64,000 nucleotides of DNA from Candidatus Staskawiczbacteria bacterium RIFOXYB1_FULL_37_44 (GCA_001822065.1 MHPJ01000026.1:5281-69280); one strand, 5' to 3'. Numbered from the stretch's first letter, positions 7,890 through 11,032 are shown. Program-made: numbers and translations. Notes: generated by a model from the letters alone, not told the origin.

Positions 7890-7931
7890 GTAAATTAACA
7901 TAATTATAGCTGTAAGTGAAAAAGTAGTAAA

Positions 7932-8215
7932 GGGATTGACAATGCATACTCTTATATGCTATAATAAATTTAGTACAGGTTTGAGTTGCCAAATGTCTTC
8001 CAAACGATTTTGTTTATGGTTTGCGGGCGAAAATTTGGAATTATGAGGAGGTTTATCAACGAAGTGATAAGCCGACGAGTAATTGCAAATTTACAGCCCA
8101 AAACATTACAAAAGAGTTGAAGGTCATTTGGCAATTCAAACCGTTGGCTCATTGAAAATGGTTGAATTTCTATTTCAGCACAAGGAGTGCAGGGACAGCT
8201 GTTTTACGGTGAGCT
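7932..8215 (+). promoter_or_regulatory. promoter (TTGACA/TATAAT) plus conserved leader, copy 1; interrupted by a roughly 135-bp insertion bounded by TTGCCAAATG/CATTTGGCAA
   Basis: Shares several near-identical motif blocks (listed under the copy-2 entry) with the region upstream of the 10331 gene. Confidence 0.55.
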
Positions 8216-8998
8216 TTGGAGGGTTTAGAGATGCGTAATTTCTATCTGATGGTTGTGGTGGCGATGGTGGTTTGCTTGGCGGGTTGCAATTGGTTCGGTC
8301 CAGACGCGGCGCATGACCAGTCCGTCGCCAGGGAAGCTCGGGCCAACGAAAGGGCGCAGATTGACGTAGCTATCGCCGAGGATCTCCGCCAAAAGGAAGC
8401 GGCCCGGAAATCAGCCGAGGAATATCGGCGGACTCATGAAACGCTGGAAGAGGTGGCGCTCGTGCAAGGAACGCATGCCACCAACTCCTGTTCCATCCAG
8501 ATCGTTCGGAAAGACACCCCAATCAACGTACGCGCCGGTAAATGTGCCGACATTTACGAAACTGGGGAGGCCGTCCAAAAAAGGCTTGCGGGCCAAGCTG
8601 TGCTTGACGATGTTCGGCTAAAGGGCTTGCAGGACGAGATGGCCCGAGCCGAAACGGTTCGTGAGGAAAAACAGCGGGAAGTCGACGACCTCAAGGCAAC
8701 GATTGGCGAAATGAAAAAGTCTTTGGCCGTCGCCGAAGCACAAGCCAAGGCCGATCGACAGAACGCCGAGCTCGCTAATGAGATTGCCCTACAAAGGCAA
8801 GTCCTTGGCGCAGCACAAACCAATCTAGCCGAGAAAACCGCGGCGCTCGCTAAGAAAGAGGCGGAGATGGCCGCCGTAAACGCCAAACTGGACAAAATCC
8901 AGAAAGACGTGAACGCGCCGATGCGGGTTTCCGTTAAGGACACCGACGCATGCGGTCGGGAAACAAACTGGACAATGGATCTCCGGAAGGCCAACTAG
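8216..8998 (+). CDS. high-GC lipoprotein-signal coiled-coil protein (hypothetical)
   Basis: GC content is far above the surrounding DNA; LAGC lipobox; long coiled coil; terminator hairpin plus T-run at about 9027-9072. Confidence 0.5.
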   Translation: MEGLEMRNFYLMVVVAMVVCLAGCNWFGPDAAHDQSVAREARANERAQIDVAIAEDLRQKEAARKSAEEYRRTHETLEEVALVQGTHATNSCSIQIVRKDTPINVRAGKCADIYETGEAVQKRLAGQAVLDDVRLKGLQDEMARAETVREEKQREVDDLKATIGEMKKSLAVAEAQAKADRQNAELANEIALQRQVLGAAQTNLAEKTAALAKKEAEMAAVNAKLDKIQKDVNAPMRVSVKDTDACGRETNWTMDLRKAN

Positions 8999-9073
8999 GT
9001 CATCGCAGTTGCGCAACGCGCGCAAGACGGATAGGCCCGAGGTTCTCAATTTGAGAATCCCGGGTCTCTTTTT

Positions 9074-10054
9074 TTACATTGATGGCTTAAAAAAGAAATC
9101 CATCATATGTTCAAGATTATAAGCTTTTTCTATTTTTTCCAAATAAATTTCGTATGTTTTTATAAATTGTTCCGATAAAAAATTGAAAAAAGATTTCTTT
9201 TTCCCTTCCATCGCGTTCACAAAAGCATTCATATGCGCTTCCCTGTTTTTATTCCAAATTATAATTGGATGATATTTGTGCATTTTCAAAATTTCATTCA
9301 TCAAAATTCTTCCGGTTCTTCCATTGCCATCCTTAAACGGATGAATTCTTTCAAACCTATAATAAAAATTAAACGCTTGTTCTACCGGATACATTTTATA
9401 ATTATTTTCATGGTTCCAATCTAAAAGTTTCTCCAACTCTTTTTTTATATCTTTATAGTCTGCCACCGGTGAATTTCCAACCACAATATTATTATCTTTC
9501 CTAAATTTTTGATTGGCAGGTTCGTGCGCCAGCAACATATCATGGATTTTTTCTATATTTTTTATAGTGATTTTAAAGCCTTTTTGTTTTGTGTAATTAA
9601 CAGCGGCGATTGTATTTTTGACTTCCTCGTTTTTTTCTCCAGTGGCTTCGCGCACTATTTTTTCAACGCTTTCCCTTGGCACGCGGCTCCCCTCAATTTT
9701 ATTGGAATTATAAATAAAATCAACCAAAAACGCTGTCTCCATTGCGGCAGAACCCAATTCTCCCATATTTCTTTTAAGCTGAAAAAGACTTGCGCGCAGT
9801 TTTTCTATTTTTTCCATATTTGCATACGCAAGGAATTCGTCGCTTACTTTATCCTTCCAATATTCAATTCTTAATTTGGCCTCCTCATCAATAATATAAT
9901 TCTGGAATTCCTGTTTTTTGACCGCCAAATTTGTAGTTGTCGCAGACGGACCTAAAGATCTGTTTTTTGGTATTGTACTCCCCTTATTTATATATATGCT
10001 GTCTAAAGCATAAATATAGGGCTTTCCGTTAACTACTTTTTGTGATATTTTCAT
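9074..10054 (-). CDS. fic: Fic/DOC family protein (AMPylation-type Fic domain)
   Basis: Canonical Fic motif HPFKDGNGRTGR; AT-rich, host-like composition. Confidence 0.8.
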   Translation of the reverse strand: MKISQKVVNGKPYIYALDSIYINKGSTIPKNRSLGPSATTTNLAVKKQEFQNYIIDEEAKLRIEYWKDKVSDEFLAYANMEKIEKLRASLFQLKRNMGELGSAAMETAFLVDFIYNSNKIEGSRVPRESVEKIVREATGEKNEEVKNTIAAVNYTKQKGFKITIKNIEKIHDMLLAHEPANQKFRKDNNIVVGNSPVADYKDIKKELEKLLDWNHENNYKMYPVEQAFNFYYRFERIHPFKDGNGRTGRILMNEILKMHKYHPIIIWNKNREAHMNAFVNAMEGKKKSFFNFLSEQFIKTYEIYLEKIEKAYNLEHMMDFFFKPSM

Positions 10055-10187
10055 ATCTTTTTTAACTTAAATTATTGATATATTTGGATTATAGCATATA
10101 TTCTCCTTGTGTAAAATAGGTTTATATTTAACACGAAATAATGCTATTTTGTAGCACGATTGAATTCAGTTTTCTTGCTATTGACAT

Positions 10188-10330
10188 TGACATTGATTAT
10201 ATGGTATAATAAATATAGTACAGGTTTATTGCCAAACCGTTGGCTCATTGAAAATTAGCTGAATTTCACTTCCCTGCGCATTTGGAATGCCAGGACAGCT
10301 GTTTCTTGTGAGCACAGAATAAGGAGATGT
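10188..10330 (+). promoter_or_regulatory. promoter (TTGACA..TATAAT) plus conserved leader, copy 2
   Basis: Same blocks as copy 1: AGTACAGGTTT, TTGCCAAACCGTTGGCTCATTGAAAAT, TGAATTTC, CAGGACAGCTGTTT, GTGAGC, then GGAG and ATG. Confidence 0.55.
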
Positions 10331-10942
10331 ATGATGACAGCTAGAGGCTGGAAGTTTGTGTACGCGGGCATTGTTGTGGTTTTCTTAATTTTGTTTGCGT
10401 TCTACAGAAGGTGCAGCGGCAGGCCTAAGCCTTCCGCTTCAGAAAAAGCGCCCGCGGCTGTGCCCGCAACTACTTCAATGCCTGTGCAAACCCTGCCCAA
10501 GCCGGCTAGTCCACTAGCTCTAACTCCATCCAGTTTAGGTGGCCAGGCACCCCAAACACAAGAAGTTGAGGCACCCCACTTTCGTATGGAAGTGAAGATC
10601 GGACCGCCCAGCATCATCGATGCAGTTAGTGATATGATCGAAAAAAATCGCAAACAGGGGGAGCAAGCCGATCTTAAAATTGACATCGCCCCCAGCCCAA
10701 AGCCAGAGGTAGCCACACAGCGAAAAAAGCGACCTGCGGAACGAGAAAAAATGATCCTCCAACAAAGATTAGAATCTCTCCGCAAAGAGCTACTAATGGA
10801 AAAACAAATCGCCAACTACCCGGCTCCGCGAGCTCAGTGGGAAGAGGCACAAAGAAATCTGACATCCAAGATCGAGGATCTTGAGGATCAGATTGACAAC
10901 ACGATTACGGCCATTTCAAACATCAAAGCCGAAATCGAGTAG
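10331..10942 (+). CDS. high-GC membrane-anchored Pro/Ala-rich coiled-coil protein (hypothetical)
   Basis: N-terminal TM, PA-rich linker, C-terminal coiled coil; GC far above the genome background. Confidence 0.5.
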   Translation: MMTARGWKFVYAGIVVVFLILFAFYRRCSGRPKPSASEKAPAAVPATTSMPVQTLPKPASPLALTPSSLGGQAPQTQEVEAPHFRMEVKIGPPSIIDAVSDMIEKNRKQGEQADLKIDIAPSPKPEVATQRKKRPAEREKMILQQRLESLRKELLMEKQIANYPAPRAQWEEAQRNLTSKIEDLEDQIDNTITAISNIKAEIE

Positions 10943-11032
10943 GTTTGTGCAAACAAACAAAAAGCGCTCAAGATTGTTTTTATACAACCGCGAGCGCTTT
11001 TCTTTTGTATAAAATTAAACTTTTAAAAATTA

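Follow-up and report, generated by a model that had tools for sequence, protein, structure and literature searches.

Stabilising stem-loops at the very 5' end are known for the messenger RNAs of abundant envelope and S-layer proteins, the 5' untranslated region (5'UTR) of Escherichia coli ompA being an example, and the variable surface lipoprotein families of Mycoplasma (vlp/vsp type) combine conserved 5' regions with divergent coding bodies. Here we describe a locus that can be compared with both. It lies in a stretch of 64,000 nt of Candidatus Staskawiczbacteria (Parcubacteria, candidate phyla radiation, CPR) from groundwater, referred to below as the window, with positions counted from its start, and consists of two genes for coiled-coil envelope proteins (g1 and g2), each behind its own copy of a promoter and structured leader, with a Fic gene between them on the other strand. 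Proteins encoded in the region are exact matches to metagenome-assembled genomes named Staskawiczbacteria. The CPR comprises ultra-small bacteria, for the most part uncultured and living as episymbionts, whose surface proteins are thought to mediate host contact and whose gene regulation is scarcely known. Our analysis indicates that this is probably a lineage-conserved, fast-evolving envelope-protein locus of Candidatus Staskawiczbacteria and not a foreign island, and that its leader is a previously undescribed, narrowly distributed structured mRNA leader with no match in Rfam. An initial annotation of the same DNA had noticed the arrangement and explained it by horizontal acquisition; the observation was confirmed and the interpretation turned out to be only partly right.

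The duplication of promoter and leader reported in the initial annotation is real. Both promoters match the consensus at 12 of 12 positions and consist of TTGACA, an 18-nt spacer, TATAAT and a TG extension (plus strand, 7936-7965 for g1 and 10181-10210 for g2). Downstream, the two copies share the -10 and start region (7952-7982 and 10197-10227, 94% identity), a block identical at 23 of 23 positions (8137-8159 and 10233-10255; chance expectation for a 23-mer 0.00) and a third block with 86% identity (8184-8204 and 10284-10304). The leader cores occupy 8145-8216 in copy 1, with helices P2a, P2b, P2c and P3 and the conserved UUGAAAAU, GUUGAAUUUC and GGACAGCUGUUU, and 10241-10315 in copy 2, where the same extended hairpin is found, both on the plus strand. 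Because the copies are identical in the functional blocks and yet unrelated in their terminal hairpins, selection appears to have acted on the functional blocks.

In the window species, the core is preceded by an extra hairpin, P1, a few nucleotides from the predicted 5' end. Fold prediction gives copy 2 a short P1 (GGUUU-AUUGCC-AAACC, plus strand, 10223-10238), and copy 1 extends the same GGUUU/AAACC stem, which has a 6-nt loop in copy 2, into a near-perfect hairpin of 165 nt (plus strand, 7978-8142) with 26-nt arms at 7978-8003 and 8117-8142. Including this hairpin, leader copy 1 folds with -102.5 kcal/mol (z -8.9). The extra 135 bp that had been described as an insertion splitting the first copy do exist, but they form the upper part of this single hairpin. 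The long P1 occurs once in the window, is found in every strain assembly but not in the leaders of the related loci L021, L029 and L031, and might be either an insertion resembling a miniature inverted-repeat transposable element or a functional extension.

Further copies of the leader, whose possible existence had been raised at the outset, were found in those three related loci but not in the window, where pattern search, BLAST and a covariance model detected no third one. Run over 243 kb (window plus loci), the covariance model returned only the five known leaders, with 47.2 bits for copy 1 (E 3e-12) and 58.1 bits for copy 2 (E 1e-15). An exact 22-mer of the leader had no match in the genome-contig collection, and the gapped pattern gave 7 matches in metagenome contigs, all by chance and in unrelated sequence lacking the other conserved blocks. 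Two scans of the viral contigs of IMG/VR gave 0 and then 5 matches, the latter from two unrelated sequences that have no flanking outer stem or Shine-Dalgarno (SD)-ATG arrangement, one match being clearly inside an open reading frame (ORF). As the source genome seems to be missing from the collections scanned, the absence of further copies holds for the 64-kb window.

The leader core is an extended hairpin of 71-81 nt, known from five distinct leaders (the two of the window and those of L021, L029 and L031). Its outer stem varies in sequence with pairing kept (GCUCA/UGAGC, AAGCCC/GGGCUU, AAGUUC/GGACUU, AAGCUC/GAGCUU); inward from it follow an invariant UUGAAA, a second stem formed with the invariant GGACA(G/A)CUGUUU, an asymmetric internal loop on the 5' side and a variable terminal hairpin. 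MAFFT mis-registered two helices and was replaced by a hand-made alignment with N as gap placeholder, on which RNAalifold gave the same fold. Over 28 pairs in 4 helices, 93.7% of the cells are paired, compared with 31-47% when the partners are slid by 1-3 columns, and 7 of the 28 pairs carry compensatory changes on both sides (helices P2a, P2c and P3). The covariation score was 0.371 versus 0.219 in shuffles, and none of 500 shuffles reached it. In addition, each leader folds on its own into the hairpin shape, with z between -3.0 and -6.0 (copy 1 -3.7; copy 2 -3.0). Pairs maintained through compensatory changes, the general mark of a conserved structured RNA, are therefore present in this set of five sequences with a hand-fitted alignment. 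The concern that the leader might occur nowhere else and show no covariation is answered by its presence in L021, L029 and L031 and by these 7 pairs; fold and compensatory changes support the earlier proposal that it is a functional regulatory RNA, which we regard as probable. No RNA family of Rfam 15 matched the cassette region at the gathering score. At E<=10 over 7890-10400, only two matches appeared: the long hairpin spuriously matched a microRNA precursor, with 22 bits where the gathering score is 195, and a stretch inside the Fic gene scored 15 bits. Published work on GC anomalies in CPR bacteria and on RNA motifs of Parcubacteria was searched as well, with no relevant result.

The position of the leader elements bears on how it could act. 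The base of the hairpin starts roughly 10-30 nt past the -10 box, and the SD sequence lies 2-20 nt beyond the hairpin, unpaired with it in all five leader folds. For g1, the SD as read from the sequence is GGAGG (plus strand, 8218-8222), outside the hairpin, and the minimum free energy fold, not the centroid, places it in a weak local stem with downstream sequence; for g2 it is AAGGAG (plus strand, 10321-10326). No terminator is present between leader and start codon. With no terminator and with an SD that is outside the hairpin and not consistently paired from leader to leader, the usual kinds of riboswitch and attenuator do not fit; CsrA-type GGA loops were dropped as unconserved across the five leaders, and a leader peptide because none is present. 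We infer from the sequence that the leader is a 5' stabiliser or a regulator-binding element rather than a riboswitch. It would act on the mRNA, neither hiding the SD nor working as a terminator switch, with the stable 5'-proximal hairpin protecting the transcript and the invariant internal-loop bases serving as a putative docking site for a regulator, and the two surface proteins would thereby be kept co-expressed. The long invariant blocks suggest that a specific factor recognises the leader as well.

The comparison with related genomes speaks against a foreign origin. A scan of relatives of the neighbouring PrsW protease led to three related genomes. The order in L021 is isoleucyl-tRNA synthetase (IleRS), PrsW, HSP20, one extra gene, tRNA-Leu(tag), promoter and leader, two cassette genes, pilins and GyrA, with PrsW and GyrA 74% and 86% identical to those of the window. 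Its cassette encodes a 125-aa lipoprotein and, after a gap of 26 nt, a 262-aa membrane-anchored coiled-coil protein, under one leader and with no Fic gene; the GC content at third codon positions (GC3) is 0.60 in both genes and about 0.35 in their neighbours. The order in L031-L033 is IleRS, PrsW, HSP20, tRNA-Leu(tag), leader, the g1 homologue P0127, pilins and GyrA. A second g1 homologue, P0126, is found in L029/L030, from a Staskawiczbacteria metagenome-assembled genome, where the cassette has a different context, between glycolysis-related genes and in the opposite orientation to them. P0126 and P0127 stand behind the same leader, with GC3 of 0.66 and 0.72 for the pair in genomes of GC3 about 0.3. 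The unit of leader and GC3-rich ORF is thus present in at least four Staskawiczbacteria genomes, three of them with it at the syntenic site, and in each cassette-bearing genome promoter, leader, GC3-rich ORF and terminator travel together. L022 (PrsW 69%) has two envelope genes at the same site with a different leader and normal GC3, so these positional homologues have neither the leader nor the GC3 shift. The contig of L021 (CAYOIH010000006.1) is labelled 'uncultured Candidatus Saccharibacteria', a label that is probably wrong given the synteny and the high identity to Staskawiczbacteria.

Conservation extends to the end of the transcript. The 3'UTR of g1 (plus strand, 8999-9075), read from the sequence as a GC-rich terminator hairpin (about 9034-9066) followed by a T tract, aligns with the 3'UTR and terminator of P0126 in L029 over 51 invariant columns. 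Since leader, ORF and 3'UTR with terminator are all kept, the conserved unit is the whole transcription unit. The shared 3'UTR blocks (window 8996-9078, L029 8709-8800) include TAGGTC, GCGCGC, GACG and TTCTCAATT, and a small GCGC hairpin stands ahead of the terminator in g1 and P0126; the 3'UTR may also be functional. The g2 gene ends in a terminator hairpin followed by a T-rich run (plus strand, 10953-11008; inverted repeat with 25-nt arms, 80% complementary).

The compositional anomaly of the two genes is also confirmed. Overall GC is 0.565 in g1 and 0.498 in g2 against a window mean of 0.366, and their GC3 values of 0.63 and 0.50 rank first and second in the window (z 5.5 and 2.7), whose 65 ORFs have a GC3 of 0.328 +/- 0.068. 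The GC steps are sharp and the elevation spans the whole transcription unit, with background regained within about 60-90 nt past the stop codon. Across the six leader-linked genes of the four genomes, GC3 is 0.50-0.72 (neighbours about 0.3), C/(C+T) at synonymous sites is 0.68 versus 0.30 in the background, G/(G+A) is 0.54 versus 0.22, and CUN codons make up 74% of the leucine codons versus 28% in background genes. Codon choice typical of high expression was dropped as an explanation, since ribosomal-protein and glycolysis genes have GC3 of 0.28-0.36 and show no shift. The cassette family has inherited its GC-rich codon usage. With proteins this far diverged, the signature of a donor should have decayed long ago; divergence with GC3 kept therefore requires either a persistent force on the transcription unit or repeated replacement of the cassette from a pool that is richer in GC and unsampled.

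The proteins diverge much faster than the genes around them. The product of g1 (plus strand, 8231-8998; 255 aa) is an exported lipoprotein whose signal peptide ends in the lipobox LAGC (VVCLAGC), the remainder being mostly a long coiled coil with a C-terminal beta-hairpin. Its end agrees with the initial annotation but its start does not: 8216 is an upstream in-frame TTG, and the likely start is the ATG at 8231, downstream of the SD. The product of g2 (plus strand, ATG at 10331 or 10334, to 10942) combines a transmembrane segment at its N-terminus with a linker rich in Pro and Ala and a coiled coil, so that both protein types were correctly recognised at the outset. A word-indexed protein search returned only self-matches for g1 and g2, and an exhaustive HMMER search of 1.84 billion representatives found two real, distant homologues of g1, P0126 and P0127; the other four matches were repeat or coiled-coil noise. 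The three proteins have similar lengths and share the motifs G.(C/S)A(D/N)(I/L)Y and SV..TDACG..T.W, with a pairwise E of 5e-11 between g1 and P0127. These only real homologues of g1 lie in AT-rich CPR genomes behind the same leader, and no homologue in a GC-rich genome or phage was found among 5.8 billion and 1.84 billion proteins, PHROGs and IMG/VR pattern scans. Profiles of Pfam, NCBIfam, PHROG and PDB gave no credible family for g1 or g2, only sub-threshold coiled-coil and signal-peptide matches.

Lipidation is predicted from the lipobox in g1, in P0127 (LLLTGC) and in the 125-aa protein of L021 (ILLGGC); P0126 has AAGFGF with no Cys, so a lipobox is not universal in the g1 family. An AlphaFold2 model of g1, built on an alignment of 3 sequences, is essentially one long helix (pLDDT 69, pTM 0.25); in it the signal helix is followed by a helix at 25-79, a segment with Cys that is left unmodelled (80-112), the long helix at 113-228 and the C-terminal beta-hairpin. 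Between the window and L031, PrsW is 66%, HSP20 73% and GyrA 83% identical, and g1 is 36% identical over 101 residues only. Against L021, g1 is unrecognisable (no BLAST match) and g2 is 22% identical, with a weak collinear similarity to the second gene of the L021 operon (E 0.01). Comparison of the g1 family with the L021 and L022 proteins by hhalign was not significant; both alignments fall on the same short motif, which is suggestive only.

Between g1 and g2 lies the Fic gene (minus strand, 9074-10054), whose position, strand and host-like composition (GC3 0.32) are as first described. Its stop codon is inside the T tract of the g1 terminator, and a candidate promoter with TTTACA, a 16-nt spacer and TATAAT (minus strand, 10088-10115) is predicted from a consensus match at 11 of 12 positions. 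The protein, of the AMP-transferase type, matches Pfam Fic with E 2.9e-20 and has the catalytic motif HPFKDGNGRTGR; N-terminal to the Fic core, SNKIEG fits the inhibitory (S/T)xxxE(G/N), and HMMER aligns it with TVAIEGN in the inhibitory helix of human FICD, the best PDB match (E 2.6e-19). In class I Fic systems (VbhT/VbhA), a separate small antitoxin carrying (S/T)xxxE(G/N) stands beside a Fic protein that lacks the motif (PMC3667792). Class II proteins combine HxFx(D/E)GNGRxxR with an intramolecular N-terminal (S/T)xxxE(G/N), are self-inhibited and require no separate antitoxin (PMC3667792). Both HPFKDGNGRTGR and SNKIEG are present in the window protein, which places it in class II, and because it is class II by motif no separate antidote is needed (PMC3667792). 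A class I toxin-antitoxin pair does not fit, as SNKIEG is within Fic itself and the neighbours g1 and g2 encode exported coiled-coil proteins. Furthermore, close Fic homologues (54-91% identity) are widespread in CPR genomes in unrelated neighbourhoods, and Fic is absent from the syntenic loci L021, L022 and L031. By its motifs and distribution, the gene appears to be a passenger inserted between the two cassette genes and unrelated to the cassette.

From these data we propose the following history. The unit would be a self-contained expression cassette made of a sigma-70 consensus promoter, a structured leader, a free SD, a GC3-rich ORF and a GC-rich terminator, the ORF encoding a lipoprotein of the g1 family and, in some genomes, a g2-like membrane-anchored coiled-coil protein in addition. 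In the ancestor, both ORFs were probably under one leader, as in L021. In the window lineage, the Fic gene on the opposite strand would have split the operon, and g2 expression would have been kept through its own promoter and leader copy. The duplication post-dates the split from L021, because P1 and the -10/start block are common to both window copies and absent from the other species. Several points weigh against this reading. The pair counts are inflated, since the manual alignment was fitted to the proposed fold, and the comparison covers no more than five distinct leaders, all from a single candidate lineage (four genomes). The primary-sequence conservation in the helices exceeds what a simple stabiliser needs, and the transcription start sites, the function of the leader and its stabilising role are all predictions from DNA. 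The orthology of g1 to the L021 lipoprotein and of g2 to the second L021 gene is weak. A conserved cassette also leaves the persistent GC3 excess, and the force that maintains it, without explanation, and the non-syntenic cassette of L029 makes some horizontal movement of whole cassettes likely.

This last point is the core of a different explanation, in which the cassette is mobile and 'moron-like', with recombination among CPR genomes moving or replacing the whole unit out of an unsampled source of higher GC content, for instance a CPR phage or a relative richer in GC. It would account for both the composition and the extreme protein divergence. The L029 copy, non-syntenic and oriented against the minus-strand housekeeping genes of the block around it, still shares leader, ORF motifs and 3'UTR with window g1; GC is raised over the entire transcription unit and returns to background within the same 60-90 nt past the stop; the proteins diverge far faster than their neighbours; the conserved flanks (tRNA-Leu, pilins) could anchor recombination; and a variant contig, L006, has its junction exactly at the g1 terminator. 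We nevertheless consider it unlikely, as the cassette is at the same site in three of four genomes, no GC-rich or phage homologue was found in the searched protein, PHROG and IMG/VR sets, no mobility genes or flanking repeats are present at the locus, and the promoter is host-typical. The model of the initial annotation, in which foreign high-GC genes were captured beside tRNA-Leu under native duplicated leaders and formed a toxin/antidote or effector/immunity set with Fic, drew on the GC3 outliers (z 5.5 and 2.7), on their position next to a tRNA with Fic between them and on the self-matches that were all the word-indexed search gave for both genes. The comparative loci largely refute it. Leader and GC3-rich ORF are conserved together as one unit in at least four genomes, with no GC-rich homologue, which contradicts cargo from a high-GC donor under native leaders. 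A functional link to Fic is contradicted by the syntenic L021 operon without Fic, by Fic homologues in unrelated contexts and by the self-inhibited class II type of the protein (PMC3667792). The genes are not 3' of tRNA-Leu(UAG) (anticodon tag; minus strand, 7807-7889; ARAGORN and Rfam) but, the tRNA being on the minus strand, abut its 5' end; moreover, no integrase-like ORF occurs in 7890-11000, where g1, Fic and g2 are the only ORFs, and no tRNA-derived direct repeat, as expected of an att site, in 7700-11200. Taken together, we regard this model as very improbable.

Equally improbable in our view is that the conserved blocks are DNA operators for a transcription factor and not RNA structure. 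TTGAAAA, GTTGAA and GGACAGCTGTTT are indeed invariant in primary sequence, the blocks lie within 100 nt downstream of the promoter, and GGACAGCTGTTT holds the palindrome ACAGCTGT in three of the five copies. The palindrome is, however, broken (ACAACTGT) in L021 and L029, where the 5' partner has changed so as to keep pairing, and the compensatory changes in P2a, P2c and P3 and the fold z of -3 to -6 for every copy likewise speak for RNA. An assembly chimera or contamination, with high-GC segments foreign to the genome, had been a worry from the start and might be suggested by the sharp GC steps and by the one low-coverage contig (L006) that joins different sequence at the g1 terminator. We give it practically no weight: the identical arrangement is recovered in at least 24 contigs (JGI, NCBI and ENA), assembled with different programs from several samples, and a like cassette stands at the same site in related species. 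As the locus was assembled independently in JGI, NCBI and ENA data, a one-off misassembly is ruled out. In L006 itself (ENA ERZ4902888 NODE_274, coverage 3.9; 8600-8740), the sequence is identical to the window rightwards from the T tract of the g1 terminator, and to the left of the junction is a 44%-GC segment that encodes a 405-aa membrane protein besides sortase, PEGA and thioredoxin. After this segment come a consensus promoter and a transcript of only ~70 nt, whose terminator is a well-formed variant of that of g1. This contig could be a chimera or a real recombinant allele without g1.

Returning to the conserved envelope-protein locus, what keeps its codons GC-rich may be selection on codons or on the mRNA, biased conversion, or cassettes being replaced again and again, all candidates for a persistent force on the transcription unit. 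A more speculative extension, to which we assign a low probability, is that leader and locally rare GC-rich codons define a small, post-transcriptionally controlled regulon of fast-evolving surface proteins in which a signal or regulator connected with host contact would be sensed by the leader or dock on it. If so, ORFs of rare codons would make translation hinge on the supply of particular tRNAs, a mirror image of bldA/TTA control in Streptomyces; tRNA-Leu(UAG) is a conserved divergent neighbour of the cassette in three genomes. Instead of such a regulon, a diversification process with a GC bias might be targeted to the locus and act on its transcribed unit. As for a diversity-generating retroelement target, no coding near-repeat is present in 7700-11200 and no reverse transcriptase domain among the called genes within 10 kb on each side. 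Whatever the force, the locus is a counter-example to the rule that atypical GC means recent horizontal transfer, as the cassette passes on its GC3 excess even where protein identity has fallen to <=36%. It also offers a testable candidate for a cis-acting RNA in Parcubacteria, tied to rapidly diverging exported proteins beside a pilin cluster, and the covariance model of the leader can be used on CPR genomes and Rifle metatranscriptomes.

The surroundings of the locus showed additional features. To its right, five tandem pilin paralogues of the type IV secretion system (T4SS)/TrbC type (minus strand, 11033-12760) are conserved neighbours of the cassette, and the position beside them suggests a role in the same surface apparatus. 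The array also flanks the site in L021, L022 and L031, and some L021 paralogues have GC-richer C-terminal extensions. GyrA (minus strand, 12785-16504; 1239 aa) carries an intein (Pfam Intein_splicing) that its orthologues in L021 (855 aa) and L031 (828 aa) do not have. On the other side, tRNA-Leu, likewise a conserved neighbour, is identical to the window copy at 82 of 83 positions in L021, 78 of 83 in L022 and 63 of 83 in L031, and beyond it an ORF at 7378-7734 (plus strand) encodes a 118-aa coiled-coil protein with three tandem LSDQTKQIEQR repeats. In the NCBI strain (L002/L007) this protein has 129 aa, consistent with one extra 11-aa repeat, so that the repeat number may vary between strains. 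A tmRNA gene is located at 36128-36479 (minus strand; Rfam 112 bits). The next GC peaks of the window (0.50-0.52; 20351-20900 and 61642-62025) are both without the leader; one corresponds to a low-complexity N-terminus, rich in Pro, Thr, Ala and Glu, in a 714-aa protein, and the other to a 127-aa protein with paired CxxC motifs at its C-terminus, a possible zinc finger. In L023 (Staskawiczbacteria RIFOXYC1_FULL_38_18), an unrelated block at about 12158-15045 with ORFs of 261 aa and 333 aa has no leader motif; it was called GC-rich from long overlapping ORFs on both strands and may be a genuine foreign segment.

Compared with known systems, the locus resembles tRNA-linked genomic islands in adjoining a tRNA and in its atypical composition, but differs from them in having no integrase, no direct repeat of the tRNA 3' end, a position at the 5' end and a site conserved across species; islands are absent from the same site in relatives, whereas L021, L022 and L031 carry envelope genes there. 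One lipoprotein and one N-terminally anchored coiled-coil protein encoded together recall the spanin pairs of phages (Rz/Rz1). Unlike these, the cassette lipoprotein is itself a 255-aa coiled coil and the locus is chromosomal and syntenic; a spanin or lysis cassette does not fit, as there was no PHROG spanin match and no holin, endolysin or other phage gene in the neighbourhood. The Fic protein is similar to class II members such as FICD/HYPE and SoFic in having HPFKDGNGRTGR together with SNKIEG aligned to the FICD inhibitory helix, and differs from FICD and SoFic by a CPR-specific N-terminal region of about 100 residues.

The two closest parallels are those introduced above. As with the Mycoplasma vlp/vsp families, a reduced-genome, host-dependent bacterium carries paralogous envelope genes with a near-identical promoter and 5' region and very fast coding divergence. 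In contrast to those families, no homopolymer or invertible switch was seen, conservation ends before the start codon and the signal peptides are unconserved, only two copies are found per genome window, and the GC-rich codon usage has no counterpart. As in the ompA 5'UTR of E. coli, a strong promoter is followed by a stable 5'-proximal hairpin, a free SD and an exported envelope protein, and the leader contains no terminator or anti-SD element, as in stabilisers of the ompA type. There is no sequence relationship between the two, and unlike the ompA 5'UTR the leader described here has long invariant blocks and an asymmetric internal loop conserved across species. By analogy with ompA it may stabilise its transcript, and its invariant blocks and internal loop suggest specific recognition beyond protection of the 5' end.

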